Assembly (NCBI GenBank): GCA_001804815.1
Contig: MHBI01000011.1
Coordinates: 1,670 to 65,669 of the forward strand
Length of the DNA: 64,000 bases
DNA from: Lentisphaerae bacterium GWF2_50_93
Lineage (GTDB): Bacteria > Verrucomicrobiota > Lentisphaeria > Victivallales > GWF2-50-93
Direction of reading: 5' to 3'
Part shown: positions 1 to 59,432 of the stretch, in pieces
Layout of the letters: every line of letters starts with the position of its first letter
Numbering within the stretch: the first letter of the stretch is position 1
The notes under the pieces: model-generated
What the model was told of the DNA's origin: nothing
Database searches by the model: none
Seen by the model: only the letters and a program-made list of their open reading frames with translations
Program-made: the position numbers and the translations under genes

Positions 1-497
1 GACCGATGCTAACGTTGTTGCGGATATCGCAGTCACGGCAACTTTTGCGATCGACACCTTTACGCTTACCTATACTGCCGGACCCGACGGATCCATAGCT
101 GGGACAAGTCCCCAGACCGTCAACCATGGCGCGTCCGGTTCGCTTGTCACGGCGACACCTTCTGCCAACCACCATTTCGTGAAGTGGAGCGACGATGTGA
201 TGACCGCGGCGAGGACCGATGCTAACGTAGTTGCGGATATCGCAGTCACGGCTACCTTCGCGATCGACACCTTTACGCTTACCTACACTGCCGGACCCGA
301 CGGATCCATAGCTGGGACAAGTCCGCAGACGGTCAACCATGCTGCGTCCGGTTCGCTTGTCACGGCGACACCTTCTGCCAACCACCATTTTGTGAAGTGG
401 AGCGATGATGTTATGACCGCGGCGAGGACCGATGCTAACGTAGTTGCGGATATCGCAGTGACGGCGACCTTTGCGATAGATACGTTCACGCTGACGT
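1..497 (+). repeat. Intragenic tandem DNA repeat, 213-bp unit, about 2.3 copies
   Basis: GACCGATGCTAACG recurs at 1, 214 and 427. Copies 1 and 2 differ at only about a dozen, mostly synonymous, positions. Copy 3 diverges after about 70 bp. Confidence 0.9.
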
Positions 498-9036: not shown

Positions 9037-9095
9037 TTAACCACTAATTTACACTAACAGGACACTAACGAATATTTGCTGTGAATCTGTTTTTT
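9037..9095. repeat. Half copy (left arm) of the CACTAA/TTAGTG palindromic element
   Basis: TTAACCACTAATTTACACTAACAGGACACTAACGAATATTTGCTGTGAATC lies directly upstream of the wbuB-like start. No right arm is present. Confidence 0.6.
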
Positions 9096-9192
9096 GCATA
9101 TTTCTTAACCAGATTCCCTTGTCCGAGACGGACAACGCTACATTCTGTACCGACGACTGTCCCACCGTCTTACTGTCTGACCGTCCCACTGC

Positions 9193-10860
9193 CTACTGTT
9201 CTATTCCAATATAAAATCCAGATTCTGCCCTCGGGCTTTCAATCACAAGCGACTGACGGAACATTTCAAGGCCGAACTCGGGATGATAGGTGGTTTTTTC
9301 CAGACAGCTCCTGCAATCACCAAATATATGGATTACGAGTTTATTTTCATCTTTTATCACGTATTCCGTCCCTGAAACCTTCTCAACCCTGCAGCTGGGA
9401 TGGAAATGTATCCGGGAATTGGCAGATATCTTCCGGGTGCTCTCTATGCGATCGACTACCTTCAATCCAACTTCTGGATTCCATTCAAATATTCTCCTGT
9501 GTATCGGTGCACCAGGCAGATGCTGGTATCCATTATGCGCGGCTTCCAGCCGGAACCCAACGGCTGATGGCTGCCAGCTGACTTCTATCGGGTAACCACG
9601 GCGTCCGACCCGGAACGCACCCCACATGTCGCACTGATCCTGTCCTTCGATCTCAATTGTATTGTGTGCGGAAGTAGACCGGCAATAACGGCGAGTATTC
9701 GAAACCTCATAATCATGCACTCCGGAATCAACTGCTACGCGGTGCCCTGCGAGTGACAGTTCGAAACTGAGCATGTCGGCATGGGCATGTCCGGGGATAT
9801 AGTCCGGCCCGATCTTTCCCGCATCGCAAACCAGGTAGTTCCCTGAAGCATCGCGCCAGCCATAATATCCGGCATCTGGCAGGGCAAAACAGCCGTAGTC
9901 CTGCCGGGAATAATTCCGTTCCAGTAGCTTGCCGCAATACTCCAGCAACTGGACTGGCTCGTTATATATGCCAAAGGCGCTGTCGTTCAAAAGCGCAATA
10001 CGTCCGTCCGGATGGCAGATATGTTTCAGTGCACATGCCATGCGTTCCATCGGATCTTCGGTTAGTTTCTGAAGAGTAGGATGACCTGTCGCCCGGAGAG
10101 CTGCCAGCAGATACAAAATCCTGCAGTGGTACATCGGAGACAGCTCAAAATGCATGCCGTCCGGCAGGATCTGCTCTGGAATCTGCTTTTCGAGGATTGA
10201 AACCCCCTTTTCCAGCCAAAGCTCCGCATTTTCACCTTTGAAACAGCTGCCTGCGAGCGCCAGGGCGGCACCATTCTCAAAATAATGATTGCCAAGCAGG
10301 CGTGTTTCCAGATGGCAGGACAGCCATTCACACTGCAAATAAATGATCTGCCACAACTGGCACTGGAAAGACTGATCCTTTTCAACTTCTGTTCGGTACT
10401 GCCCCCAGAACACACTGCACCAGTTCATCACACGCAATGAAACTGGATAAGAATCCCAGCCAGCTTGATCCTTCGCCAGACGGTGCTTGGCGATCCAATC
10501 CAGTGCAACGGTCTTGGCATCTTGATAGTCCAGCGACCACAGCCACTCGAAATAATGCAGATTGTACTGCCAGAGCTTCGGAAGATTAGTCCGGTTCCAG
10601 CCTGGGGGCCACCCGATCTCTTCAGTACGGTTGATGAAAGTCATTCTTCCTTCCAGGACACCTGCACTGCTGTTGTTTTGGATTCCCGGAGGAAGGAATT
10701 TCCGGTCCTGATTCCATCGGCAACCTGGAAAATCCGGCGCCTTCCTTGCTGAAACCCGGGCTGGGTTCTCCAGAAAAGGACGAATCCTGTGGTCTATCTG
10801 TCCATGGATCTGGCATGGCTTCAGATGCCGAATGGTATGGTAGAATCGTGAGATGTTCAT
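9193..10860 (-). CDS. Heparinase II/III family protein
   Basis: LLGNHYFENGAALALAG and PGHAHADMLSFELSLAGHRVAVDSG motifs are present. The gene neighbourhood is typical for this family. Confidence 0.75.
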   Translation of the reverse strand: MNISRFYHTIRHLKPCQIHGQIDHRIRPFLENPARVSARKAPDFPGCRWNQDRKFLPPGIQNNSSAGVLEGRMTFINRTEEIGWPPGWNRTNLPKLWQYNLHYFEWLWSLDYQDAKTVALDWIAKHRLAKDQAGWDSYPVSLRVMNWCSVFWGQYRTEVEKDQSFQCQLWQIIYLQCEWLSCHLETRLLGNHYFENGAALALAGSCFKGENAELWLEKGVSILEKQIPEQILPDGMHFELSPMYHCRILYLLAALRATGHPTLQKLTEDPMERMACALKHICHPDGRIALLNDSAFGIYNEPVQLLEYCGKLLERNYSRQDYGCFALPDAGYYGWRDASGNYLVCDAGKIGPDYIPGHAHADMLSFELSLAGHRVAVDSGVHDYEVSNTRRYCRSTSAHNTIEIEGQDQCDMWGAFRVGRRGYPIEVSWQPSAVGFRLEAAHNGYQHLPGAPIHRRIFEWNPEVGLKVVDRIESTRKISANSRIHFHPSCRVEKVSGTEYVIKDENKLVIHIFGDCRSCLEKTTYHPEFGLEMFRQSLVIESPRAESGFYIGIEQ

Positions 10861-10896
10861 ATGTGTAAAATCAGGAATTAGGAGACGGTCGGACGG

Positions 10897-11274
10897 TCAG
10901 ACAGATTTACAGAAAGACTCATAATTCTGGATCACGCTTCCGAGCTTACGTCCTAGCTCAGCATATCTCAATAATAGTTGGTAATGCTCTTCTGTAATCA
11001 TATATTCGCAGGATTTCGCTGTTTCAATCCAGTGCACGGTTTCCTGAAGTTCCCCGTCAGCGTCGGTACACTTGCTCAGAAAATGCGCAGGATATCTACG
11101 CTTTGACCAGGCTTCCGCGATATTGGCTCCAATTGAACGGGAACTCCGACGGACCTGATCGGTCAATGCATACTTTTCCTCTGGAGGCCAGAGTTTGCTA
11201 ACTTTGAAAACATGCTGTTGCAGTTCGAACGCCAATTTGTAAACATCTAAGTCTCGATAACTTTGCACGCGCAT
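10897..11274 (-). CDS. Four-helix-bundle protein (23S rRNA intervening-sequence protein / Avd-like family)
   Basis: 125 aa. YRDLDVYKLAFEL...ALTDQVRRSSRSIGANIAEAWSKRRYPAHF matches the family pattern. It is inserted between two functionally linked sugar-modification genes. Confidence 0.8.
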   Translation of the reverse strand: MRVQSYRDLDVYKLAFELQQHVFKVSKLWPPEEKYALTDQVRRSSRSIGANIAEAWSKRRYPAHFLSKCTDADGELQETVHWIETAKSCEYMITEEHYQLLLRYAELGRKLGSVIQNYESFCKSV

Positions 11275-11302: not shown

Positions 11303-11370
11303 CACTGCCCACTGCCCACTGCCTACCGCCTTACCGTCAGACCGTCAGACTGTCAGACCGTCAGACTGCC
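11303..11370. repeat. Degenerate word tract (CCCACTG x3, then CCGTCAGA x4)
   Basis: The sequence is CACTGCCCACTGCCCACTGCCTACCGCCTTACCGTCAGACCGTCAGACTGTCAGACCGTCAGACTGCC. It overlaps the last 6 codons of the oxidoreductase. Confidence 0.85.
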
Positions 11371-13527: not shown

Positions 13528-13888
13528 TAACCACGAAACACACGAATGACACGAAAAGCAAGATTATTTAACCACTAATCTTCACTTATCTGACACTAAT
13601 AAATCATTTGCTGCGAGTTTGCTTCTCCGGAGGAGAATCAAAATCACAGCAAGTCTTGTATGTTAATTCCTGTTAGTGACAGATTAGTGTCCGTTAGTGG
13701 TGAAGTCTTTGTTCAGGTTTTAAGAAGGGCTCCCGAATTTCCGCATTCCCTCTTTCACAGACAACGGATCACCGACCTCTGATTACCGTGTCCATCCTGT
13801 CTGTCGTCTGCCCTCTGACCCCCCGATTACCGACCCTCCTGCCTGACTGTCCTCTGTCCTCTGTCCTCTACTGCCTACCGTCCTCAAC
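13528..13888. repeat. Composite intergenic mosaic: CACGAA words, palindromic element (13568-13706), TTCCGCATTCCCTCTTTC module, C/T-rich word tracts
   Basis: ACCACGAAACACACGAATGACACGAAAAGC comes first. The palindrome runs TTTAACCACTAATC...GTTAGTGGTGAAGTC. It is followed by CCGAATTTCCGCATTCCCTCTTTCACAGACAACGGATCACCG and then GATTACCG / CTGTCCT words. Confidence 0.85.
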
Positions 13889-33970: not shown

Positions 33971-34232
33971 GGCCGGGATATAACCACGAAATACACGAAT
34001 CACACGAAAATAAGATTTTTATAACCACTAACATACACTAACAATATATTTGCGTTGAATGCTATTTTTTGAAACAAGAAAACATCATTCGACGCATGGT
34101 CTGTTTATTAATCCTGAGTCCCGAAAACTCTCGCACTTTAGAACTCCAGAACTTTCGAACTTCCGTTCGGTGTTTCTGTTAGTGCCGATCCTCCGTCGCC
34201 AAGGCTATGGGGGACGCGTTAGTGGTGAAATC
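33971..34232. repeat. CACGAA-word block + palindromic element (variant B apex) with internal GAACTTTCGAAC words
   Basis: GGCCGGGATATAACCACGAAATACACGAATCACACGAAAATAAGATTTTT is followed by ATAACCACTAACATACACTAAC...TGCGTTGAATG...CATTCGACGCA...GTTAGTG...GTTAGTGGTGAAATC. Confidence 0.8.
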
Positions 34233-34361
34233 TCTTCTTTATTCTGCGGTTGGGAAAAAATACGCACGCTGTGAACTCCAACGTAATTCGCTGATCAAAA
34301 ACTACCGACCTCTGATTACCGTCCCACCGTCCCACCGTCCCACCGGCTTCTTCTCCATGAC

Positions 34362-34625
34362 TCACTTGATTCGCCAGAATCCAGTTTTATGGCCGCCAAT
34401 TCATTCAAGGATTCCATCTTTCTTCAGTTTCAGAATATGCTGCTTCACTCCATTAATGCCGATACCAAGCTGCTGCGCTAGTTCTTTTCGCGTAACGCGA
34501 CTGTTCAGCCCGATTATTTCCAATAGACGTTCACGAGTCTTAGGGGTAGTCTTAGGGGTAGTCTTAGTCTTCTGTTCTTGATAATTCAAGCTGGCGAGAT
34601 ACCCATCGCCACTCTCCTCATTCAA
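34362..34625 (-). pseudogene. Remnant of the C-terminal wHTH part of an AlbA_2/ATPase-type regulator, with premature TGA
   Basis: KTTPKTTPKTRERLLEIIGLNSRVTRKELAQQLGIGINGVKQHILKLKKDGILE is followed by TGA (34401-34403). The frame then continues as IGGHKTGFWRIK-stop, the usual family ending (..RIGG.K.G.W.I). The N-terminal domains are absent. Confidence 0.55.
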
Positions 34626-34642
34626 ACGAAAAAATAAGATCT

Positions 34643-34770
34643 TTTAACCACTAATATTCACTAACAAAGAGACACTAACAAGACTAGGGACACTGACCAA
34701 TATTTGCTGCGAGTTTGTTTTGAAGCAAAATCAAAATCACAGTAAGGTGTTCATGTTAATTCTGAATCAT
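34643..34770. repeat. Palindromic element, copy lacking the right arm
   Basis: TTTAACCACTAATATTCACTAACAAAGAGACACTAACA...ATATTTGCTGCGAG...TCACAGTAAGGTGTTCATGTTAATTC. It ends where the PIN gene 3' end begins. Confidence 0.7.
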
Positions 34771-34786
34771 TGCTTTTGGCTGAGGT

Positions 34787-35269
34787 TTAGGCTGCCAATT
34801 CAGTTTGACGGCTAATCCAGACTCCATTCCTCCGCATGTGTTCGATCGAGGTTGCCATGTCAATTTCTGTGCAAAACCCTAGAGATTTCGCTTTCAGGAT
34901 AATTCCGATGGAACCTGTAACATTGAGTCCGTGTAACCGTGCAATGCGACGTCCAGCAGACTCGTCAATGCAGACTGTTGCTATCTTTTCATTCAAAGCC
35001 GTTTGAATCACAGCAGCTTCGCCAAGATCAAGAATATTAGACAAGTAGGAATTGATATGAATTCCGCGATTCTTCTTGGAAAGGAAAGATGCTCCATGAT
35101 ACTCAAGAACTCCCAATGCATCTGGCCCTCAAGCCAAAACTTCATTAGCAACTTCCTCTGGTACAATGACATGCCTGTAAAGATTGGTAAGTATGTCAAG
35201 ACTTCCAAGGGCAGCCGCCAAAGCTAAGATTGGGCCAGTGTTGATTACAATATCTGTGTTTTTACGCAT
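34787..35269 (-). pseudogene. DUF3368 (PIN-like) toxin gene interrupted by one in-frame TGA
   Basis: ATG at 35269 gives MRKNTDIVINTGPILALAAALGSLDILTNLYRHVIVPEEVANEVLA. TGA at 35129-35131 follows, and the same frame continues GPDALGVLEYHGASFLS...LGEAAVIQTALNE...CIDESAGRRIARLHGLNVTGSIGIILKAK. The start overlaps the UPF0175 stop (ATGCGTAA). Confidence 0.7.
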
Positions 35270-35516
35270 GAGTCAAGTCAGATTTCAGTTCCGATTCAGT
35301 AATGTCTATTATGGAAACATTATAATTTTTTAGCATCATTAAAAAATTGACCCGCTCGATGCCGAGCAGTGAGGCAGCTTGTCCGGACGACAGGCGCTTC
35401 AATTCGAAAAGTTTCACTGCCATCGCCACCTTTGCTTCATGCTCGAACTGTTCCCGAGTTTCATGTAGAGCGTCAGGCAGTGTATCCGGAAACTCCAGTG
35501 TTATTGTGCATGGCAT
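35262..35516 (-). CDS. UPF0175 family antitoxin-like protein
   Basis: 84 aa. AMAVKLFELKRLSSGQAASLLGIERVNFLMMLKNYNVSIID matches the family pattern. It is translationally coupled to the DUF3368 gene. Confidence 0.75.
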   Translation of the reverse strand: MPCTITLEFPDTLPDALHETREQFEHEAKVAMAVKLFELKRLSSGQAASLLGIERVNFLMMLKNYNVSIIDITESELKSDLTHA

Positions 35517-35678
35517 TTTATATTCCTCCAGTTAACATGTTTTCTAATTTGTTGAATTTTCCGTTTTCTCGCAGTCTATCGTAGAAAGTTACGATGCTCA
35601 TCTTTTGTATATTTTAACATTAGCGTATGCTAACGCTAAAACAACAGTATGTCAAGATGCGTATGATGGGAAATCCGG

Positions 35679-35852
35679 GGCCGGGATATAAACACGAAAT
35701 ACACGAAAATAAGATTTTTATAACCACTAACAAGAGCACTGACGAATATTTGCTGCGAGTTTTATTCTCAGATGAGAATAAAATTCACAGCAAGGTGTTC
35801 ATGTTAATTCCTGTTAGTGTTTCCGTTAGTGTCCATTAGTGGTGAAGTCTTC
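35679..35852. repeat. CACGAA-word block + palindromic element (variant A)
   Basis: GGCCGGGATATAAACACGAAATACACGAAAATAAGATTTTTA is followed by TAACCACTAAC...ATATTTGCTGCGAG..ATTCTC-AGAT-GAGAAT..CACAGCAAGG...GTTAGTGTTTCCGTTAGTGTCCATTAGTGGTGAAGTC. The right arm encodes the last 9 codons of wzz. Confidence 0.85.
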
Positions 35853-36824
35853 GGTTTTCCGGAACTTTTCCTTATACATCTTTAGAAACTGCATCAGAAA
35901 AATATATCCGCCGGCAATTAGGAGCCCGATAAGTCCACCCATTACGGATTTTTTAGCTCCACCACGCGGCAAAGGACGGTCCGCTGGCTGGGGCTTTTCA
36001 AGGACGGTCAACAATGTCAAATCGTATTCCCCTTTGAGCTTTAAGGAGTTATATCTTTCAAAAAGCCCTTTGTAGAGCTGTTCCTTCTCGTTGACCTGCA
36101 TCAGTAATTTATCTTCCAGGTATTTCAGGTTTGGAGGTGGACTGGATTCCGCAATCAGTTTATTGGTCTGTCTGAATTTTAGCAGAGCCTGTTTCGCATC
36201 GTCAAGCTGAATCTTAGCTTTTTCCATGTCAATGTTTATTTTATTGATATCTGTCTGGGAATTCGAGCTTAGCTGGGAAGTATAAAATGCGTTTAGCTTA
36301 GTTATTAATTCATTTACAATCAACGGCGAGATTTTTGGTTCTGAGGTCGTAGCTGAAATTTTGAGCACAAAGGTATTCTTATTGAAATTCAGCTTAAGGG
36401 ATTTTTTCAATTTGCGTATTCCATCAGGCATGTCTTTGCAGCCAAAATATTCCATCAGCGAACTCTTCTTCTCCACCCCGTCCTTCTGATAGGCTACTTC
36501 CATCATCAGTATGCTTTTCAGAGTGTCGTTGGAGAATATCACGGCCTCATAGGTGCTTGCTATGACATTGCCGGATTTGCCAGTGCCGGATAAATCAAAA
36601 TCAGCTTTCGCAGAGTAAGACATGGGGTTGCCCAGCAGTATCACGCCTGTTGACTCATAATTTTTGGTATAGAACGCTACTGCGTAACCTGCACCAAGGA
36701 CAAATCCAATTATAAAGAGGCTTACTATAAGCATCTTATAGCGGAGGATTATTGACAGGATATCGAAAATACTTATTTCGTTTTCCTGCATATTGTCAGG
36801 ATATTGTGGAAGAGGATTATTCAT
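35826..36824 (-). CDS. wzz: Polysaccharide chain-length determinant (Wzz-type PCP, no kinase domain)
   Basis: N-terminal EISIFDILSIILRYKMLIVSLFIIGFVLGAGYAV (Wzz motif + TM1), a coiled-coil periplasmic region and a C-terminal TM (GGLIGLLIAGGYIFL). Confidence 0.75.
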   Translation of the reverse strand: MNNPLPQYPDNMQENEISIFDILSIILRYKMLIVSLFIIGFVLGAGYAVAFYTKNYESTGVILLGNPMSYSAKADFDLSGTGKSGNVIASTYEAVIFSNDTLKSILMMEVAYQKDGVEKKSSLMEYFGCKDMPDGIRKLKKSLKLNFNKNTFVLKISATTSEPKISPLIVNELITKLNAFYTSQLSSNSQTDINKINIDMEKAKIQLDDAKQALLKFRQTNKLIAESSPPPNLKYLEDKLLMQVNEKEQLYKGLFERYNSLKLKGEYDLTLLTVLEKPQPADRPLPRGGAKKSVMGGLIGLLIAGGYIFLMQFLKMYKEKFRKTEDFTTNGH

Positions 36825-36955
36825 TTTGTTTTCCCATTACTATTACAGGTTCCTATAGCAGTTCACGCGACAACCAGAACATGTGCCCACAGATAACACA
36901 GATAAAAACATTTTTAACCACCAGTCTTCGCCAAAGCGCTAAGCCTTAACAAGCT

Positions 36956-37116
36956 AATCCATTACACGCAAATGCTTCTTTACCACTAATCTACACTAAA
37001 AAGAGACACTAACGAATATTTGCTGCGAGTTTGATTCTCCGAGGAGAATAAAAATCACAGCAAGGTGTTCCTGTTAATTCTTGTTAGTGTTCCCGTTAGT
37101 GTCGATTAGTGGTGAA
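36956..37116. repeat. AATCCATTACAYGCAAAYGCTT module + palindromic element (variant A, most complete copy)
   Basis: TACCACTAATCTACACTAAAAAGAGACACTAACGAATATTTGCTGCGAGTTTGATTCTC-CGAG-GAGAATAAAAATCACAGCAAGGTGTTCCTGTTAATTCTTGTTAGTGTTCCCGTTAGTGTCGATTAGTGGTGAA. Confidence 0.9.
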
Positions 37117-37278
37117 AGCTCTTCTTTATTCTGCGGTCGTCTGCCGTCTGCTTACTGGCAACTGGTGGTCACCAACCTCTGTTACCGCCCTTCTAATTAC
37201 TAATCTCGGATTACAATTTTCCCTCGTGCAGCGGCGCAAGAACACAGAGATTATACTCACCACGATGAAACGAAGGGA

Positions 37279-37614
37279 TTATAATTTCAGGCTTTCAAGC
37301 CATTCCGTAAGTAGGGGGATATGGTTTTGCACAGCATCCCACACAATATTATCATCAACGCTATCATATCCATGTATGATTCGGTTGCGCATGCCGATGA
37401 TGCTTCCAATTGAGGGGATTTGACTTCGGAACGATGTGTCTATGCGATCTATCCGACTAAACGCTTCGCCAAGAATTTCAAATTGTCGTTCTACAGCTGA
37501 GCGCAAAAGCAAGCTGGCAGAGTATTCACTCAACGACTTCTCAGCAGTGAACAATGTGATTGCCTTGCATGCCGTCAGGGCATCAAGCAGATACTTTGCC
37601 AGTTCGATCTTCAT
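37279..37614 (-). CDS. hepT: HepT-like (DUF86) RNase toxin
   Basis: 111 aa with the R-x4-H-x-Y motif in GMRNRIIHGYDSVD. It is paired with an upstream nucleotidyltransferase. Confidence 0.8.
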   Translation of the reverse strand: MKIELAKYLLDALTACKAITLFTAEKSLSEYSASLLLRSAVERQFEILGEAFSRIDRIDTSFRSQIPSIGSIIGMRNRIIHGYDSVDDNIVWDAVQNHIPLLTEWLESLKL

Positions 37615-37924
37615 AAATTAAAGCTCTAGACTCATCTACTTTCTTTTGAAAATAAGAATTGCGGATTGATTTTGGGGTTAGCAGATCCACTTCTCTTCCC
37701 AGCAGTCTTTCAAGCTGTGTGGCTAGAGCAAGATAACGATCCAAAAGGCCCAAGCTTGAAGCCGAATTGTCAAATTCGACTATAAAATCTATGTCGCTAT
37801 GAGAGGAGTCAAATCTGCCATCGGAGGCAGAGCCAAAAACCTCCAAACGGTGAATTTGAAGATTTTTACAGATGGTCGCAATTTTAGGTTTGTTGGCAAC
37901 AAGCAAATCTATCATATACAACAT
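37583..37924 (-). CDS. mntA: MntA-like nucleotidyltransferase antitoxin
   Basis: LEVFGSASDGRFDSSHSDIDFIVEF (G-S-x10-D-x-D minimal NTase motif). The start is uncertain (37924, 37915 or 37966). It overlaps hepT by 32 nt. Confidence 0.75.
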   Translation of the reverse strand: MLYMIDLLVANKPKIATICKNLQIHRLEVFGSASDGRFDSSHSDIDFIVEFDNSASSLGLLDRYLALATQLERLLGREVDLLTPKSIRNSYFQKKVDESRALIYEDRTGKVSA

Positions 37925-38060
37925 ACCCGAATTTGTTGAATCATACACATTGGGATACTCTATCATGTATCAACCGTTTCTGCAAGAGGTGCCTGCTAGT
38001 GGCGAAGTATTTTTTCCTTTCTTCGGATTACGGCTTGCCAAACCACTGTCCATCCGATAC

Positions 38061-38091
38061 AGGATCTTCGCCGAGACGGCGAACTCTACAT
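38061..38091 (-). promoter_or_regulatory. Conserved hairpin module (sense: ATGTAGAGTTCGCCGTCTCGGCGAAGATCC), minus-strand copy
   Basis: It is the reverse complement of the modules at 49638-49670 and 55674-55702, between the wza-like stop and the mntA start. Stem TTCGCCG/CGGCGAA, loop TCTC. Confidence 0.6.
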
Positions 38092-38121
38092 TTTTACCGA
38101 CCGACGTCTGTCCTCCGCTGC

Positions 38122-40566
38122 CTACTGTATATCAATCGTGCTGTCCATCGGGACTTCGGGATTGAACCAGAGAAGTCTCTTGCCGTTCAGGATGTTTCCG
38201 GCGTACGTTTTAATCAGGATTTCCCTAGGAGTAAAGCCGTGTGTGTATCCGCCGGCCATATTTACGTAATACATATAATCTTCGCCTTCCTTATACACAT
38301 ACCGGCCTGGCTTGACAACAGAGCCTGAAATGAAAACCCAGGGCTGTATTTCCATAACCTCAATTTCATCGCCGGGCTTCACAACTATATTCTGCGCGCT
38401 GTCATGATTCTCTATTGCTTCATTGATATACACATCTGAAAGCATCCCGTCCCTTTTTAGAACCGCCTTGCCGATCATTACATTATTTTTAAAACCTCCC
38501 GCCCTCTCGACAAGCGATGATAATTTCTCATTATCCATATAGTTATATTTGCCTGGATAGTTGACCTTTCCTGACAATTCGACATCAGCCTCGTTTAAAT
38601 TAAAGTACGGATTCTTTGGGATGATTACCAGATCCTTCTCCTTCAGCAGGAAGAGCCTGTTCTCTTTGGAATTATAGTTCAAAAGTATAGCTTCCTTTTT
38701 CTCAATATCGGCTTCTCTTTTTAATCGCCCGATATCCACTCTTTCGGGATTTGCGGATTCAGTAAATCCTCCAGAGGCTTTTATGAGGTCGGCAATATTC
38801 ATGTTTTCTGTAAACTCATATTTCCCAGGCTTTTTAACTTCACCTCTGATTTCAATATGTTTTTTAGGTATGATCTCGTCTACCGAGTAAATCCTTACGC
38901 TGTCTCCGCTTGACAGCTTTATGCTTGTCTTGTTGCCCAGGACCTCGTAAATATTAAAAGGAATGATCTCAAATTCCCCCAGGCTTTTCTTCCTGAAAAG
39001 GTCAGCTCTCTCCATGTATATCTTCTTGTCCCTGTCCGGATCGTCAAAACCTCCGGCCATGAAAAGTAGATCCTGGAGGGTCATATCCTTGTTGAGCATA
39101 TATTTTCCGGGATTGCTGACAATGCCTGATATGCTGACGAATTTATCCTGCCCCTTCATTTCAAACTGGGAATAGATGATTATCTTGTCCATAGGGTTAA
39201 GAACAAATGGCTTGTCATTAGTATCAGCAAAGTTCAACCTGACGATTTCCTTCGTCAGATCCGCATTAGTACGGAGGATGATTATATTGTCCAGATAAGC
39301 ATCTTTATAGAGTCCGCCGGCCTCTGCAACAAGGTCCTTGAGGGTCGAGCCTTTTTTGTATTCATAGGTCCCAGGCTTTTTTACCCCGCTTCCACTGACA
39401 GTCAGGATGTCTCTGATTTTTTTAATTGGCATCACTGTGAAGCATATAGAATCCCTCGGATATAATTCTACATCTTTGCCGTCAACTAAGTCAATGTCAA
39501 GGAATTGCTCGCCTTTTACAGGATCATATCTTTCTATTTTTACTTTATCCTTGATTGCCTCAACGGAATAGCCTCCGGCGATTTCAAGAAGCTTGTTCAG
39601 GTTTTCATCTTTTTTAAGCTCGTATATGCCGGGTTTGGCGACGGCCCCTTGAAGCGCAACAGTTTTTCCTCTGATCGGTACGTATATGATATCGCCGTCA
39701 TTGAGATACTTGTCCTCTGACTTTAAGTTTCCTTTCAGAAGAAAGCTGTATAGGTCGAAAGTGTTGACTTTTCCGTCTTTCATCTTTCTGATTTCAATGT
39801 TCCTCAAAGACCCTATGGGATTTACACCGCCCCCTTGTTTCAGCGCGTTCATTACTGAGGCCGATGCAGCGTCAAGGTTAATCTCGCCAGGCTTAGCAAC
39901 TTCGCCTGTTACAAACAACTTAACTCCGATGTTCTTCCCGAGCGTTATATCGACTATGGAACTGCCGGAACCGGGATTTTCTGGATTGATGAACGCGGCA
40001 TATGTCTGGCTGAGGGCTTTAAGGATCTTTGCTTTGGCGGTGATGAGTTCCATCCCATGGACGTAGACGCGCCCGACTTTCAGTATGTCAATAAATCCAT
40101 CCTGTTGTATAGGAAGCTTATAATGGAGATTGACGTCACCCCAGATGTCAATTATGATTTCATCACCGGATTTCAAGATATAGTCGCCGAGGATTGCATT
40201 TGACGCACCCTGTGCAGGTCCTCCGGTTTTCAGGAACTCATAGCCAAATTCCTTTAAGGCGCCTTCAGCAGTTATCTTGTCGGTATCAGGAGAATTTGGA
40301 CCGCCTGCAACTTTCGCAGTAGCGCTGCCTGCTGGAACTGCCGCCCCAGTTGTAGAAGCGGAGGCAGTTCCTGGAGCAGTCGCTGTGCCGACCGAAGAAG
40401 AAGCCCCGGGGTTGCTTGATACAGCGGGCGGTGCAACGACAGCTGGAGCGGTCGCAGTTGCCCCGGCAGTTGAAGTTTCCGCTGCAATTACTGCAGCCGC
40501 GATAGCTGCGGTTGTTAAAACCGCAAACACAAGAAATACGATTGTCTTCTTACTGAATATTTTCAT
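38122..40566 (-). CDS. wza: Outer-membrane polysaccharide export protein (Wza/OPX family) with multiple SLBB domains
   Basis: 814 aa. A signal peptide is followed by an Ala/Thr/Ser/Pro-rich linker and a Poly_export-like segment (SGDEIIIDIWGD...IQQDGFIDILKVGRVYVHGMEL). Repeated SLBB-like modules follow (V.I.G.V.KPG.Y). Confidence 0.8.
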   Translation of the reverse strand: MKIFSKKTIVFLVFAVLTTAAIAAAVIAAETSTAGATATAPAVVAPPAVSSNPGASSSVGTATAPGTASASTTGAAVPAGSATAKVAGGPNSPDTDKITAEGALKEFGYEFLKTGGPAQGASNAILGDYILKSGDEIIIDIWGDVNLHYKLPIQQDGFIDILKVGRVYVHGMELITAKAKILKALSQTYAAFINPENPGSGSSIVDITLGKNIGVKLFVTGEVAKPGEINLDAASASVMNALKQGGGVNPIGSLRNIEIRKMKDGKVNTFDLYSFLLKGNLKSEDKYLNDGDIIYVPIRGKTVALQGAVAKPGIYELKKDENLNKLLEIAGGYSVEAIKDKVKIERYDPVKGEQFLDIDLVDGKDVELYPRDSICFTVMPIKKIRDILTVSGSGVKKPGTYEYKKGSTLKDLVAEAGGLYKDAYLDNIIILRTNADLTKEIVRLNFADTNDKPFVLNPMDKIIIYSQFEMKGQDKFVSISGIVSNPGKYMLNKDMTLQDLLFMAGGFDDPDRDKKIYMERADLFRKKSLGEFEIIPFNIYEVLGNKTSIKLSSGDSVRIYSVDEIIPKKHIEIRGEVKKPGKYEFTENMNIADLIKASGGFTESANPERVDIGRLKREADIEKKEAILLNYNSKENRLFLLKEKDLVIIPKNPYFNLNEADVELSGKVNYPGKYNYMDNEKLSSLVERAGGFKNNVMIGKAVLKRDGMLSDVYINEAIENHDSAQNIVVKPGDEIEVMEIQPWVFISGSVVKPGRYVYKEGEDYMYYVNMAGGYTHGFTPREILIKTYAGNILNGKRLLWFNPEVPMDSTIDIQ

Positions 40567-40618
40567 GGGTTATCTCCTTGATGCAAAGTTAAGTCTGAAA
40601 AAATAAAAAAAACACTTG

Positions 40619-40988
40619 TTAACCACTAATCTACACTAAAAAGAGACACTAACAATACATATGCGTTGAATGCTGTTTTTCAAAACAAAAATATCATCCG
40701 ACGCATGGTCTGTTTATAATTAAACTTTCATCCTGGTTAGTGTAAAATCAGTGTGGATTAGTGGTGAAATCTTCAGTTTTCTTTACGGAACGCCGGCACC
40801 CCTGCCGGCATGTTTCTTTTCTTCTTATATAACTATGCCACCAGGTCTCAAGATCCCGGCCACGAAGTGCGTCGGGATTGGTGGCGTTCCATGATTCGCT
40901 GATTACCGACCCCGGATTACCGATTACGCCATCCGTCGTCCGTCCTCCGTCCCCTGCCGACTGCCCACTGCCCACTGCCCACCGATTC
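40619..40988. repeat. Direct repeat copy 1 (~365 bp): palindromic element variant B + hairpin/T-tract + GATTACCG and CCCACTG words
   Basis: Near-identical to 42423-42785 at an offset of 1804 bp. This copy has one extra CCCACTG unit. Confidence 0.9.
40792..40826 (+). terminator. Orphan terminator-like hairpin on the + strand inside the direct repeat (second copy at 42596-42630)
   Basis: GCCGGCA-CCCC-TGCCGGC is followed by ATGTTTCTTTTCTTCTT. There is no + strand CDS upstream. On the - strand no U-run follows the stem. Confidence 0.3.
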
Positions 40989-40996
40989 CCTGCCTC

Positions 40997-42304
40997 TCAC
41001 TCCAGAAGCCATTTCCAAGCCGGGACAGCTCGTATTTTAACGCCTTCACTGCTGAAATATTGTTCTTCATTGCGGGTTACAATGAAGTTTTCCTTGACAC
41101 CGAAATATTTTGCAGTTGAAACCAGAGGGTCAACCTCCCTCTTAAGGGTTTCCTTGTCTGAAATGTCAATACAGACCTGTATGGTGGACGAAGGCCTTCC
41201 GCTGTTCCCGGTAACTATGAAATCCACTTCCTGCCTATGGGACTTCGTCAGATAGTAGTTCAATCTGGAGTGCCTTCTTTTGAGATGGACGAAGACCATG
41301 TTTTCAAAAGCGCGTGAAAGACTTCCATCCCATACAGGACTGTTATGGTTGGCAAGAGCCCAGTCAATACAGTAGTTCTTCTTGCTGTTCCTGTCGATCT
41401 CCTTTTGTGAGGAGCTGTAAATCGGGATCGGAAAGAAAAGCCAGGAATCTTCGGAGTGCTGGAGTAGTTTTAATACGGTATCCCTTCCTATGTGAAAACC
41501 GCATTGCCTGAGATATCCGTATGTGCTCTTATGGGATACTCCCTTCCCCATGCATGAGAGCAGGTACCTGTATAGATGGATGCATTCCCTGGGCTGGGTG
41601 ACACCAAATCTCTGTATCACATCCCTGAGTATCATGGTGTCAAAATATTCCCTCAGCAATTTCGCCTTTGAGCTCTCCTGGGTTTCCGTAAGGGCGGGAA
41701 ACCCTCCCCAGAGAAGATAGCTTTCTAGAAGGGAGTCCAGTCTTGCCTGTCCCACCGTCGAACCGACATCGGCATGAACGCGGTTGAAATCCAGAAATTC
41801 GCGGAAAGAAAGAGGATATATCTCGGTGCCTATTGATTTTCCGCGGAGTTCCTTTGCTGCGTCGTCCCTGAGAAGTTTGGACGAGGAGCCGGTGACGAGC
41901 ACCTTCCAGTTCCTGTTTCTTGAGAGTTCGATAACTGCGTTTTCCCAGCCATCTATCCTATATATCTCATCGAATATGAAAAGGGACGGCGTTTTCATGT
42001 CGAAGCTGGGATTGAGCTTGAGATATGATTTCTGTATGTCTAGAAGATCCTTCGCATTCATGGATGAAAGGACAGGATTGTCAAAGTCCAGGAAGCATAT
42101 GTTCCGTATTGAGGCGACCTGCCGTTGCCTCAGAAATTCATCGGCGACCTGCAGGGCTCTGAAGCTTTTTCCGGCACGCCTCGACCCTATGAGCGAGGAT
42201 ATCATGTTGGGAACGATATCGACCGGATCCAGCCTTGGCACGAATTCGGGAATGCCGTTTTTCCAGAAGTCCTCGAGTTTTCGGCCTATCTCGTTTGAAA
42301 TCAC
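40997..42304 (-). CDS. AAA+ ATPase with DUF4143 (AAA_14 family)
   Basis: 435 aa. Walker A is LIGSRRAGKSF and Walker B is LFIFDEIYRIDGWE. The C-terminal region has the typical WGGFP pattern. Confidence 0.8.
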   Translation of the reverse strand: MISNEIGRKLEDFWKNGIPEFVPRLDPVDIVPNMISSLIGSRRAGKSFRALQVADEFLRQRQVASIRNICFLDFDNPVLSSMNAKDLLDIQKSYLKLNPSFDMKTPSLFIFDEIYRIDGWENAVIELSRNRNWKVLVTGSSSKLLRDDAAKELRGKSIGTEIYPLSFREFLDFNRVHADVGSTVGQARLDSLLESYLLWGGFPALTETQESSKAKLLREYFDTMILRDVIQRFGVTQPRECIHLYRYLLSCMGKGVSHKSTYGYLRQCGFHIGRDTVLKLLQHSEDSWLFFPIPIYSSSQKEIDRNSKKNYCIDWALANHNSPVWDGSLSRAFENMVFVHLKRRHSRLNYYLTKSHRQEVDFIVTGNSGRPSSTIQVCIDISDKETLKREVDPLVSTAKYFGVKENFIVTRNEEQYFSSEGVKIRAVPAWKWLLE

Positions 42305-42422
42305 TTTTACTCCACAATTATGACTTGTTACAAGGCATAATATGATATAATTGACACTTTTAGCAAGGCATAAATTAAAAAAGTAACTATACTAAACACG
42401 TGGAAAACATGAAAAAGATCTT

Positions 42423-42785
42423 TTAACCACTAACGTCCACTAAAAAGAGACACTAACAGTACATATGCGTTGAATGCTATTTTTCAAAACAAAAATATCA
42501 TCCGACGCATGGTCTGTTTATAATTAAACTTTCATCCTGGTTAGTGTAAAATTAGTGTGGATTAGTGGTGAAGTCTTCAGTTTTCTTTACGGAACGCCGG
42601 CACCCCTGCCGGCATGTTTCTTTTCTTCTTATATAACTATGCCACCAGGTCTCAAGATCCCGGCCACGAAGTGCGTCGGGATTGGTGGCGTTCCATGATT
42701 CGCTGATTACCGACCCCGGATTACCGATTACGCCATCCGTCGTCCGTCCTCCGTCCCCTGCCGGCTGCCCACTGCCCACTGATTC
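42423..42785. repeat. Direct repeat copy 2 (~365 bp)
   Basis: See copy 1. Only scattered substitutions were seen (e.g. CTAATCTAC vs CTAACGTCC, AATCAGTG vs AATTAGTG). Confidence 0.9.
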
Positions 42786-42892
42786 ATGACATGCAGGCAA
42801 GCTTCGCCCCGTCAATTATGCGGATTGCTAACTCATAAAATAGCTCTAAAATGGGGATTTTACCACCTGAATTATAAAACTCCAGAATGCAA

Positions 42893-43255
42893 ATCCATTA
42901 CATGCAAACGCTTATTCACCACTAACGTACACTAAAAAGAGACACTAACGGTACGTATTAATTAAACTATATCGTTTACTTAATCCGTACTAATAGAGGT
43001 AATTTCAAAACTCAAGGAATGGTCATGGCAAGCATGACCCTCCACGCCCGAAACGGGCGTAAGAATGGAGGGACGCGGTTTTGCCTTCGGCAAGCATCGC
43101 TTCGCTAAGCTAAGCCGCGTCCGAAGTTTTGAAATTACCTCAATAATCAAATTCACAGCAAGGCCTGGTTTATAAATTCCGAGTCATAAAAACTCCAGCA
43201 CTCCATAACTTTAGAACTTTAGAACTCCCCTTCAGTGTCCATTAGTGGTGAAGTC
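42893..43255. repeat. Palindromic element copy with an expanded/interrupted apex
   Basis: The left part is AATCCATTACATGCAAACGCTTATTCACCACTAACGTACACTAAAAAGAGACACTAACG. The right part is ...ATTCACAGCAAGG...CAGTGTCCATTAGTGGTGAAGTC. The left apex half is replaced by new sequence that includes the 146-bp insert. Confidence 0.75.
42996..43141. repeat. 146-bp insert bounded by perfect 17-bp inverted repeats, highly structured (MITE-like element or ncRNA)
   Basis: GAGGTAATTTCAAAACT ... AGTTTTGAAATTACCTC. Internal helices are GGTCATG/CATGACC, CCCTCCA/TGGAGGG enclosing ACGCCCG-AAA-CGGGCGT, and GACGCGG/CCGCGTC enclosing TTGCC-TTC-GGCAA. Confidence 0.6.
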
Positions 43256-43320
43256 TTCTCGTTCCGAACTTTCGAACTTCCGCATTCCCTCTTTCTCAGA
43301 CCACGGATCACCGTCCTCCT

Positions 43321-43398
43321 GCCCACTGCCCACTGCCCACTGCCCACCGCCCACTGCCCACTGCTCACTGCCCACCGCCCACTGCCCACTGCCCACTG
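43321..43398. repeat. Heptamer tandem repeat (GCCCACT) x11
   Basis: Eleven consecutive 7-mers, three of them variants (GCCCACC x2, GCTCACT). The complementary strand reads (CAGTGGG)n, a G-quadruplex-type motif. Confidence 0.95.
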
Positions 43399-43520
43399 TC
43401 TGCCAGCCACTTTCCGATCTTTCAGGAGTATTTCCCTTGATTTTACCTAGTGCCTGATTATCTTCAAGGTGCGAGACAATTGCAAAAACGGATCTTTCGT
43501 TGAAATATATGATCTATGCT

Positions 43521-46788: not shown

Positions 46789-46822
46789 GGTTCCCTGAAT
46801 TCAAACCCGTTAATCCATTAAT

Positions 46823-46844
46823 CAGTCATCCCTTGGGATGACTG
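46823..46844 (+). other. Hairpin CAGTCATCC-CTTG-GGATGACTG within a recurrent module (second copy 59411-59432)
   Basis: It is preceded by TCAAACCCGTTAATCCATTAATC, as at 59373-59410, and lies 35 nt after the lipoprotein stop. It may act as a terminator, but the U-run is weak. Confidence 0.4.
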
Positions 46845-49637: not shown

Positions 49638-49670
49638 GGATGTAGAGTTCGCCGTCTCGGCGAAGATCTT
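49638..49670 (+). promoter_or_regulatory. Conserved hairpin module GGATGTAGAGTTCGCCGTCTCGGCGAAGATCTT
   Basis: One of three copies in the window, all in sense orientation relative to the flanking genes. This one lies 72 nt upstream of gspD. Confidence 0.6.
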
Positions 49671-49741
49671 GGGACGGTGTGCAGTAGAGAAGACAGAATT
49701 TGAATTTAAAAAATACAAAAAAATATGGATGTATGTGGATT

Positions 49742-56377: not shown

Positions 56378-56450
56378 AATTAATTACTTTTAAATATGAT
56401 GCAAGTTCCAGGATGCAGGATCCAGGATTTCTAAAACAAGCATCGAGTGT

Positions 56451-56520
56451 CCGGCATCCGGCATCAAGCATCCGGCATCCGGCATCAAGCATCCGGCATC
56501 CGGCATCAAGCATCCGGCAT
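56451..56520 (+). repeat. Perfect 21-bp tandem repeat (CCGGCATCCGGCATCAAGCAT) x3.3
   Basis: It abuts the ATG of the gspI-like gene and is in frame with it (it would read HPASSIR x3). The unit is itself three 7-mers (CCGGCAT CCGGCAT CAAGCAT). Confidence 0.95.
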
Positions 56521-56901
56521 ATGAAATTCACCCTCATCGAAGTGGTAGTGGCGCTGGCGGTCCTCGGACTGGCGGTCATTTCGGCCATGGAAATGTGCTC
56601 GAGCGCCGTCAACAGGATGGAAAAGGCCAAGGCCAGATGGACGAACCAGCACAGGATTTCACAGGCCGCCGAGTTTTTCCTGCTTGCAGGTCCCAGCGGC
56701 CAGCTCCCACATGAGATATTCCCCTACCAGGACGCAAGAGCCTCGTGCAGTATCGACAATGCCATGGGGCTGCCCGACGACGTCGAAGCGGTTTCCGGAC
56801 AATGGTGTCTGGCGACCTACCACATCCAGCTTTACGATTCTTCAGGCAGGCAGACCAGTTTCCTGAAGGTGGACAAGATAATACAGGTGTCGGACCAATG
56901 A
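56521..56901 (+). CDS. gspI: Minor pseudopilin, GspI-like
   Basis: MKFTLIEVVVALAVLGLAVISAMEM. The upstream in-frame ORF extension to 56374 consists of the repeat tract and overlaps the gspH-like stop, so it is considered less likely. Confidence 0.6.
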   Translation: MKFTLIEVVVALAVLGLAVISAMEMCSSAVNRMEKAKARWTNQHRISQAAEFFLLAGPSGQLPHEIFPYQDARASCSIDNAMGLPDDVEAVSGQWCLATYHIQLYDSSGRQTSFLKVDKIIQVSDQ

Positions 56902-59127: not shown

Positions 59128-59240
59128 TATAACCACCACGTTTGTCCAGCGCTATGAATACAAAATAATGACACCGGAGAACTTACCTTAATCCGTCGCC
59201 ACTTCAAATATTATTATAAATAAATCCACTGCCGTCCCAT

Positions 59241-59432
59241 GGATTATTGGATTGCTGGATTATTGGATTGTTGCAAATCAAAGAGTTATGCCATAATCAC
59301 AATATAGGAAAAATCCGAAATGCCTATTCTGAATTTTTTCTTAAAATCCAGCATCTTTGGTTTTTCTGGAACTCAAACCCAATAATCCAGGAATCCATAA
59401 ATCCATTAATCCGTCATCCTGTGGGATGACGG
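59241..59432. repeat. Inverted GGATTATT-word arms plus GTCATCC hairpin module
   Basis: GGATTATTGGATTGCTGGATTATTGGATTG (59241-59270) faces CCCAATAATCCAGGAATCCATAAATCCATTAATCC (59378-59412). CCGTCATCC-TGTG-GGATGACGG follows. Confidence 0.75.

Follow-up and report, generated by a model that had tools for sequence, protein, structure and literature searches.

What is the palindromic DNA that recurs between the genes of a surface-polysaccharide locus in Lentisphaerae bacterium GWF2_50_93, and what keeps it there? The stretch that we analyzed, hereafter the window, is 64,000 nucleotides (nt) of contig MHBI01000011.1 (assembly GCA_001804815.1; positions 1,670 to 65,669, forward strand). An initial annotation, made from the letters alone, had described in it nine copies of an element built from phased CACTAA and TTAGTG boxes. 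The element is a real, structured, and previously uncatalogued palindrome. In other genomes, palindromes of the same design enclose a gene of the GxxExxY (PDDEXK_3) family. We give a probability of about 0.55 to the reading that the nine copies are gene-less members, comparable to REPINs or to MITEs (miniature transposable elements with inverted repeats), of a large repeat family whose full-length members carry GxxExxY, and that the GxxExxY protein may act on the arms.

The palindrome and its family

All nine copies were present where they had been reported, as read in the sequence and tabulated box by box. L-numbers, here and below, designate stretches from other genomes or metagenomes; L159 and L160 are close relatives, with 83 to 94% nucleotide identity in wzy, wza, and wzz. 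The copies and their accessory parts are as follows.

9037-9095, plus: half copy; left arm of three boxes (CACTAAT 9042, CACTAAC 9052, 9063) and the start of apex A
13530-13556, plus: CACGAA-type accessory arm (ACCACGAAAcaCACGAATgaCACGAAA), left-arm orientation
13568-13706, plus: complete copy, apex A; 3 + 3 boxes
13734-13779, plus: high-side module TTCCGCATTCCCTCTTTC..CAGAC..ACGGATCACCG; second copy at 43273-43318 (91% identity)
33983-34009, plus: CACGAA-type accessory arm, upstream of the copy at 34022
34022-34232, plus: copy with apex B and an inserted segment; 2 + 2 boxes
34643-34770, plus: truncated copy; left arm of four boxes, apex TTTTG-AAG-CAAAA, without a right arm
35721-35852, plus: complete copy, apex A; the wzz open reading frame (ORF) terminates within its right arm
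36980-37116, plus: complete copy, apex A; upstream of wzz, with orthologous copies in L159 and L160
37996-38012, plus: arm-end relic CTAGTGGCGAAGTATTT, between the wza stop and the MntA start
40619-40773, plus: complete copy, apex B; upstream of wza, with orthologous copies in L159 and L160
42423-42577, plus: complete copy, apex B
42912-43255, plus: interrupted copy; arms 270 nt apart

The arrays are far from chance. Pairs of the form CACTAA-N4-9-CACTAA occurred 21 times in the window versus 0.04 expected, every one of them inside a copy; TTAACCACTAA, with at most one mismatch, matched 17 times versus 0.61 expected; and 40 of the 42 CACTAA/TTAGTG hexamers fell within elements. Blind repeat detection, with no prior knowledge of the element, recovered the same element families and their side modules. 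The half copy at 9037-9095 sits 17 nt upstream of the start of a GT4 gene (9019, minus strand).

Most of the anatomy first described was confirmed, and some of it needed correction. The reported polarity holds: all copies have T(T/A)AACCAC at the low-coordinate end and GTGGTGAAG at the high one, the sole exception being 42912-43255, which has the TTCACCAC form at both ends. Three boxes per arm is not a rule, the arms having from two to four. The box spacing of 10 to 13 nt holds for the window copies (10 to 11 nt in the wider family). Apex variants A and B and the interrupted copies are as described, as are the different but still self-complementary apex of 34643-34770 and the decayed arm near 38 kb, now placed at 37996-38012. 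The side modules exist but are not fixed to every copy; the CACGAA block accompanies three copies and the TTCCGCATTCCC module two. The copies are nearly, but not strictly, intergenic: the wzz ORF (35826-36824, minus) enters the right arm of 35721-35852 by ~27 nt and stops at a box TAA.

Either strand of the whole element folds as a long interrupted hairpin, and the single-strand folds were much more stable than those of shuffled sequences (z, −4.5 to −8.7 on both strands). The apex stems agree with the selection on structure that had been suspected: compensatory changes at 3 of 16 pairs (10 sequences) preserve the pairing. Some apices (42912-43255 and 34022-34232) have taken up other small palindromes. 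In 42912-43255, a nested small palindrome at ~42995-43140 (GAGGTAATTTCAAAACT ... AGTTTTGAAATTACCTC), a separate miniature element, replaces the left half of apex A.

A scan of one genome per species with the pattern ACCACTAA-N4-CACTAA-N3-7-ACACTAA gave at least 120 stretches. Among the matches listed, grouped by record title, 104 belong to the Planctomycetes-Verrucomicrobia-Chlamydiae (PVC) superphylum (Verrucomicrobiota, 62; Lentisphaerota, 24; Planctomycetota, 10; Kiritimatiellota, 7; Chlamydiota, 1), and 16 are from other taxa or are unclassified. They include the cultured isolates Geminisphaera colitermitum TAV2, Rhodopirellula baltica, and Roseimaritima sediminicola. The few matches outside the PVC superphylum came from Nitrosomonas, Nitrospinia, Bacteroidota, and other metagenome-assembled genomes (MAGs). 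Carriage by phages or plasmids was rejected because only two viral contigs, and no plasmids, matched the arm pattern. A literature search (word strings; repeats of PVC bacteria, Verrucomicrobia, and Rhodopirellula; GxxExxY) found no description of the element.

The common arm is ACCACTAAT-N3-CACTAAT-N3/4-CACTAAT, followed by a loop and the inverse arm. An arm usually has three 7-mers (words), CAC(T/G)AA(T/C), phased at 10 to 11 bp, the outermost being extended to (A)ACCAC. Among 113 parsed elements, the spacer between words 1 and 2 was 3 nt in 106, and that between words 2 and 3 was 3 to 4 nt in 103; loops ranged from 4 to 394 nt and were unrelated between taxa. The arms themselves have no internal hairpin. 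Word variants (CACGAAT, CGCTAAT, and CACTCAT) may make neighboring arms or half arms, for example the "CACGAA block" of the window. All nine window copies and the 113 elements elsewhere consist of inverted arms of two to four phased CAC(T/G)AA(T/C) words with an ACCAC outer end. The window copies have the arms of the family but enclose lineage-specific hairpins, and they are probably its gene-less members.

In many phyla, the arms occur mostly as lone elements next to housekeeping genes, and orthologous positions are kept (L011 and L112; the window, L159, and L160). Copies within several genomes have their words in common but differ in spacers and loops. The elements are numerous enough to break MAG assemblies, which is a practical concern. 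The end signature of the window, GTGGTGAAGTCTT, occurred at 33 metagenomic loci. The orientation relative to genes, reported as fixed, is indeed so for all window copies and for 8 of 9 in L159 and L160, but it is mixed in the related metagenomic lineages that have this end; co-orientation is therefore a local property.

A GxxExxY gene between the arms

Gene-bearing elements were found in Kiritimatiellales (L055), Terrimicrobiaceae (L001), Opitutaceae (L053), and Ancylomarina (Bacteroidota; L070), with partial cases in L114, L013, and L054. The order is arm, 5 to 40 nt that include a ribosome-binding site, a GxxExxY ORF of 120 to 140 amino acids (aa), 2 to 15 nt, and inverse arm. All four elements with a loop of 380 to 410 nt hold GxxExxY (E, 1e-52 to 1e-61), and no other enclosed gene was found. 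No arm pair 0.45 to 6 kb apart encloses a transposase, and a classical autonomous insertion sequence with these ends was rejected on that ground. One MAG has the element both with and without the gene (L055 and L015), and the subtype seen in the window (end GTGGTGAAGTCTTC) adjoins GxxExxY genes in L128 and L144, from related metagenomic lineages.

A Pfam census of the ORFs within 250 bp of arms was made in two sets. In the first (150 ORFs, 146 families), PDDEXK_3 occurred seven times and was the sole clearly recurrent family; in the second (104 ORFs), it occurred twice, and glycosyltransferase, epimerase, and PIN families were at least as recurrent. There was no recombinase among the families listed for these 254 arm-neighboring ORFs.

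For an independent test, GxxExxY homologues were chosen by protein search alone, blind to DNA motifs. All seven had arms, at four different insertion sites. In the isolate Pontiella desulfatans, the gatC stop is followed by 9 nt, ACCACTAATcttCACTAATcaaCACTAAT, the GxxExxY gene, ATTAGTGcagATTAGTGaaaATTAGTGGTT, 10 nt, and the gatA start; a second genome has a unit at the same site, with the gatA ATG directly abutting the arm (the two units are L166 1440-1910 and L175 1455-1900). In three genomes (L174, L180, and L182), the unit lies between two ABC permease genes, and two further insertion sites were seen. The arm itself supplies the final codons and the stop codon of some GxxExxY ORFs. Stretches with the gene present are L001, L053, L055, L070, L166, L175, L174, and L182.

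In a comparison of the two gatC|gatA genomes, protein identity is 79.5% for GatA, 64% for GatC, and 63% for GxxExxY, and codon third positions are 0.38 to 0.53 identical. The arms are identical at 53 of 57 positions; all 45 word bases are the same, and all four differences are in spacers. Because the words are identical while codon third positions have diverged, the words are under strong purifying selection; the ORF is as well. The type of word also follows the protein: CGCTAAT arms accompany the "MK.EIYK" GxxExxY clade and CACTAAT arms the other clade. In a more distant GxxExxY clade (L101 6380-7100 and L138 60-760), an unrelated repeat (TTTGAACAAAGAGGAAGCGAAGGAAG...) flanks the gene, a hint that other clades may have other cognate repeats.

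GxxExxY (PF13366/TIGR04256) is predicted to be a PD-(D/E)XK nuclease with a fold like those of Cas4 and lambda exonuclease. The PD-(D/E)XK residues D66, E76, and K78 are invariant, and the AlphaFold2 model (predicted local distance difference test score, 95) has Cas4 SSO0001, lambda exonuclease, and RecE as its nearest PDB folds; by sequence, no solved relative was found. The family is large (22,333 clusters at 50% identity), and its function is listed as "Unknown" in a survey of PD-(D/E)XK proteins. A fixed DNA partner is the first genomic context for this orphan family.

We infer from these associations that GxxExxY may bind the words and cut DNA, and may thereby maintain or spread the elements. 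The phased words would be its binding sites, three on one helix face per arm, and it would act on the arms around its gene and, in trans, on copies that have no gene. The breaks that it made would be followed by recombinational repair that keeps or copies the elements, as in REPIN-RAYT systems or in homing.

The polysaccharide locus and its cassettes

From 4.6 to 42.3 kb, all genes are on the minus strand and make up a locus for surface polysaccharide (GT4, epimerase, heparinase-like, AlgX/MBOAT, glycosyltransferases, Wzx, Wzz, and Wza); the next operon, on the plus strand, is for type II secretion. Between 34 and 43 kb, small accessory units break the locus: a winged helix-turn-helix (wHTH) remnant, UPF0175 with a PIN-like remnant, MntA/HepT, and an AAA_14/DUF4143 ATPase. 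As had been proposed, elements separate these single- or two-gene units. In the unit labeled "PIN/UPF0175", the UPF0175 part stood, and the PIN part proved to be a DUF3368/PIN-like remnant. The genes and repeats of this region are as follows.

34401-34625, minus: wHTH (HTH_24) remnant
34787-35516, minus: UPF0175 antitoxin (35262-35516) and DUF3368/PIN-like remnant (34787-35116)
35826-36824, minus: wzz, core gene
37279-37966, minus: toxin-antitoxin cassette, MntA (37583-37966) and HepT (37279-37614)
38122-40566, minus: wza (Poly_export/SLBB), core gene used to find relatives
40600-40988, plus: direct repeat copy 1, composed of a word tract, a GC hairpin module, and element B
40997-42304, minus: AAA_14/DUF4143 ATPase cassette (PADLOC PDC-S01; E, 9e-90)
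42404-42790, plus: direct repeat copy 2, 95% identical to 40600-40988
43318-43400, plus: (CCCACTG)n tract, (CAGTGGG)n on the gene strand

MntA matches the PADLOC phage-defense candidate PDC-S09 (E, 6e-30) as the ATPase matches PDC-S01; phage-defense-candidate genes are thus embedded within a polysaccharide export locus. When the main ORFs of the 64 kb were searched with Pfam, neither an integrase nor a transposase nor any other recombinase was detected.

Whether cassettes are present or absent beside elements in close relatives was the test that the initial annotation had set for itself, and such differences were found. At syntenic sites, L159 is without AAA_14 and without MntA/HepT, and L160 also is missing MntA/HepT between wza and wzz; both keep the elements upstream of wza and wzz. 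The units of L160 differ (AAA_14, DUF2281, and AF2212-PIN, with elements between each), and a further element lies between wzm and wzt. The window comes from a groundwater Victivallales MAG; its Wza has 91% identity to a protein of a Victivallales MAG, and GCA_003516325.1 has this locus too. A Nitrosomonas MAG contig (L002) has the same layout, with elements between RelBE, DUF4160/DUF2442, and GxxExxY units, and with four tandem empty elements.

The AAA_14 gene of the window is bracketed by 385-bp direct repeats (95% identical) that end exactly at the outer arm end (plus strand, TTAACCAC); in L159, this unit occurs once. Three other data sets have the AAA_14 gene, with a partial repeat at either end, on separate short contigs of 1.6 to 1.9 kb (L123-L125). 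This is the assembly signature expected of 385-bp flanking repeats, and a circular form would look alike.

The cassette differences fit exchange by recombination between dispersed repeats, and we infer that the turnover uses the repeats as homology. Dispersed near-identical copies would be portable homology, and recombination between them would move defense and toxin-antitoxin cassettes into and out of the polysaccharide locus, which would be why the accessory units are bracketed and differ between relatives at their borders. A dedicated site-specific system for cassette exchange had no support. Co-oriented sites less than 4 kb apart occur in the window at 34-43 kb, in L002, and in L160, whereas most family members are single and the cassettes of L002 lie in both orientations. 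In attC, the outer core sites are R″ (RYYYAAC) and R′ (GTTRRRY), and crossover takes place in R′. A test for such outer sites failed, the outer boxes of the element being (A)ACCACTAA(T/C) and (A/G)TTAGTGGT; only the inner boxes read CACTAAC/GTTAGTG, and these match attC core sites at 5 of 7 positions. The end point of the AAA_14 duplication, GTGGTTAA|, lies beyond the box. Gene-less copies mark sites of gain and loss of defense-candidate and toxin-antitoxin genes in a polysaccharide locus, which is relevant to the coupling of phage defense with surface-antigen variation.

Other repeats are also present in the window. Heptamer or octamer tandem tracts lie directly downstream of minus-strand genes (43318-43400, 40955-40985, 42764-42780, 34322-34345, 9150-9200, and 13790-13880). 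These tracts, (CAGTGGG)n or (GTGGGACG)n in the gene strand, are repeats of the G-quadruplex type (G3-N4/5) and open the repeated unit that borders the AAA_14 cassette. A TIGR02436 four-helix-bundle gene ("23S rRNA intervening sequence protein"; ORF 10897-11274, minus) has GTCTGACN octamer arrays at 10884-10916 and 11330-11362 and is a second small "hitchhiker" gene with its own word arrays. Another phased-word palindrome (TGGATT/AATCCA, ~8-nt period; 59239-59269 and 59376-59406) precedes the hairpin GTCATCC..GGGATGAC, which is seen again at 46825-46842 (regions 46804-46842 and 59392-59430). The genome seems to hold several families of word-array palindromes.

In the type II secretion operon, a pseudopilin-like ORF has at its start, or upstream of it, a tandem tract of (GCATCCG/GCATCAA) 7-mers (56440-56534). 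The 32-nt hairpin-forming sequence ATGTAGAGTTCGCCGTCTCGGCGAAGATC occurs at 38060-38091 and 49640-49671, inverted and 11.5 kb apart (97% complementarity), and is found also in the wzy-wza spacer of L159 (3425-3490). At 1-640 of the window, 213-bp tandem repeats (94 to 95% identity) lie inside a 1,295-aa ORF (179-4066, plus) that looks like a repetitive surface protein.

Weighing the explanations

Several results weigh against the reading that the window copies are gene-less members of an element family on which GxxExxY acts. The GxxExxY gene was not found within the 64-kb window. No target-site duplication was seen at any junction examined; there was no direct repeat at gatC|gatA or at the window junctions, and the flanks of 185 arms had only an extension of the palindrome (GTGGTT plus A-rich sequence). 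No empty-versus-filled pair was found for the element itself, and no mobility event was observed. To our knowledge, a PD-(D/E)XK nuclease alone cannot transfer strands. The unit at gatC|gatA seems to have been passed on vertically for a long time, as would be expected of a maintained cis function no less than of a selfish element. Few independent sites underlie the match of word type to protein clade, and a shared host lineage could account for it. Finally, the covariation of the apex stems and the co-orientation of all copies with transcription in the window lineage point to some selection at the level of RNA or single-stranded DNA.

Several simple functional readings were rejected. Flanking genes were divergent, tandem, and convergent in 10, 15, and 6-7 cases, which are roughly neutral proportions, and arm ends faced gene ends 75 times and gene starts 48 times, often from 0 to 30 nt away; therefore, the family is neither promoter specific nor terminator specific. 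Since all three arrangements of flanking genes occur, a location at promoters only or at terminators only was rejected. A sigma-70 promoter formed by the boxes was rejected as well (no consistent −35/−10; 23 promoter-like matches versus 17 expected). The intrinsic-terminator scan gave 13 matches versus 8.1 expected and did not flag the element itself, only small flanking hairpins at 40792-40809 and 42596-42613 (plus). A DNA-uptake-type word was rejected because CACTAA occurred twice outside the arrays versus ~7 expected, and a selected set of stop codons in all three frames because the 10 + 11 nt box spacing places TAAs in two frames in most copies.

A transcribed intercistronic RNA hairpin, acting as a processing site, a 3′-end stabilizer, or an insulator (terminator plus restart) with its polarity selected relative to transcription, is the alternative that survives best, and we consider it rather unlikely. 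Such a hairpin would suit the co-orientation in the window and in L159 and L160, the stability of the transcribed-strand folds (z down to −8.7), the compensatory changes in the apex, and sites between operon genes such as wzm|wzt (L160) and gatC|gatA; there are also T-rich runs after the element on the gene strand, and a GC hairpin with a T-run on the opposite strand. However, structure alone does not account for 7-mers that are conserved across phyla when the spacers and loops are not. CACTAAT arms of the Nitrosomonas array stand opposite ATTCGTG arms, a systematic mid-box mismatch (family-wide, 44 of 339 box pairs). Approximately 40% of the arm ends point toward gene starts, tight divergent pairs included, orientation to genes is mixed in other lineages, and no canonical U-tract follows the stem. 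A known RNA family was rejected at both the gathering and the E-value thresholds: Rfam 15 gave no match at gathering score across the window and only chance-level hits (E, 0.75 to 1.4) in 33.8-43.6 kb. No tRNA or tmRNA was found. Covariation of mirror boxes is ambiguous as evidence that a hairpin is selected: variants co-occur in both arms above chance and the spacers are 44% complementary, but some lineages have systematic mid-box mismatches.

It is improbable, in our judgment, that the arms are operator arrays to which some host protein other than GxxExxY and unrelated to it (a global regulator or a nucleoid-associated or insulator protein) binds, and that the GxxExxY gene merely prefers to insert into their loops. 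The arms do have the form of such arrays, since 7-mers with 3- to 4-nt spacers and 10- to 11-bp phasing are typical of winged-helix (OmpR/PhoB-type) or ribbon-helix-helix proteins. The strong purifying selection on words and the retention of sites at orthologous positions (L011 and L112; the window, L159, and L160) are in keeping with operators, and element loops are hot spots for other insertions. Against this, the neighboring genes have no common functional theme (146 families among 150 ORFs), sites occur also between convergent genes, copy numbers are high enough to break assemblies, the word type tracks the clade of the enclosed GxxExxY, and GxxExxY is the sole gene found enclosed.

The recombination-site role first proposed, that of integron-like attC sites (clusters of attC sites lacking integron-integrases [CALIN]) at which a recombinase encoded elsewhere inserts and excises single-gene cassettes, is very improbable: co-oriented palindromes with a variable center do separate toxin-antitoxin or defense-type units in the window, L002, and L160, cassette content varies between relatives, and there are an "empty" unit and another with duplicated sites on its two sides, but the boxes of an arm are direct repeats and not the inverted R/L pair (AAC-N5-6-GTT) needed by a recombinase dimer, the outer boxes are ACCACTAAT/ATTAGTGGT and not RYYYAAC/GTTRRRY, the AAA_14 duplication ends outside the arm and not at G|TT, there is no integrase in the 64 kb and no recombinase among the families listed for the 254 neighboring ORFs, most members are single and beside housekeeping genes, and the cassettes of L002 lie in both orientations.

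We thus return to the reading in which GxxExxY-bearing and gene-less palindromes form one family. A broader proposal built on it can be put forward only tentatively, as somewhat less likely than its opposite: GxxExxY with its phased-word arms would be an unrecognized class of selfish or domesticated bacterial DNA element, in which a Cas4-like nuclease recognizes 7-mer arrays and, with host recombination, maintains and spreads gene-bearing units and thousands of gene-less palindromes, the latter serving as exchange points for defense and toxin-antitoxin cassettes in surface-polysaccharide loci. In any case, the arms are a conserved noncoding DNA signal common to Verrucomicrobiota, Kiritimatiellota, Lentisphaerota, and Planctomycetota, groups in which cis-elements are little known. 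That units sit inside essential operons (gatC|gatA and ABC permeases) without breaking them bears on the tolerance of selfish genes.

Among known systems, free-standing homing-endonuclease genes and the small ORFs in 23S rRNA intervening sequences, which encode four-helix-bundle "IVS proteins", resemble the gene-bearing units in that a tiny, selfish-looking ORF fits snugly between host cistrons without disruption and has inverted repeats as its bounds. The four-helix-bundle gene of the window is likewise flanked by short word arrays. The element differs in having no intron or intein context and no known, defined empty target allele, and its arms are abundant without the gene. attC sites share with it an imperfect palindrome, a variable center, unpaired spacers between paired boxes, and, in this window, co-oriented copies between toxin-antitoxin-rich single-gene units. 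Here, in contrast, the boxes are direct, three per arm, and conserved in sequence across phyla, without IntI and mostly single at housekeeping genes. An integron needs IntI beside its array, and a CALIN does not.

Bacterial MITEs such as Correia and Chunjie (reviewed in PMC10969869) are likewise small, have terminal inverted repeats and no ORF, and occur in multiple copies, with many size variants and partial copies, in intergenic sites and also inside operons. However, the element has no target-site duplication, no DDE transposase parent was found, and, unlike in a recent burst, copies within several genomes agree in their words but not in their spacers or loops. A form that has these ends and bears a gene, as a MITE parent would, does exist, and its product is a predicted PD-(D/E)XK nuclease, not a known transposase.

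The closest analogue is the REPIN/RAYT system. REPINs and REP sequences with RAYT genes are found, for example, in Pseudomonas fluorescens (PMC3116915, PMC3733652), where the REP unit is 20 to 40 nt with a GTAG or CGTC tag (PMC3733652). The gene product there is a HUH Y1 transposase of the IS200/IS605 type, whereas here it is a predicted Cas4-like PD-(D/E)XK nuclease; no Y1_Tnp (RAYT) is among the families listed for the 254 neighboring ORFs, and the flanked gene is PDDEXK_3. The arms here are three phased 7-mers rather than a tagged 20- to 40-nt hairpin, and the same words recur across phyla. What the two systems have in common is many copies of short, palindromic, intergenic repeats whose two inverted halves form a long hairpin, a small cognate gene flanked by those repeats, no target-site duplication, and long vertical persistence.

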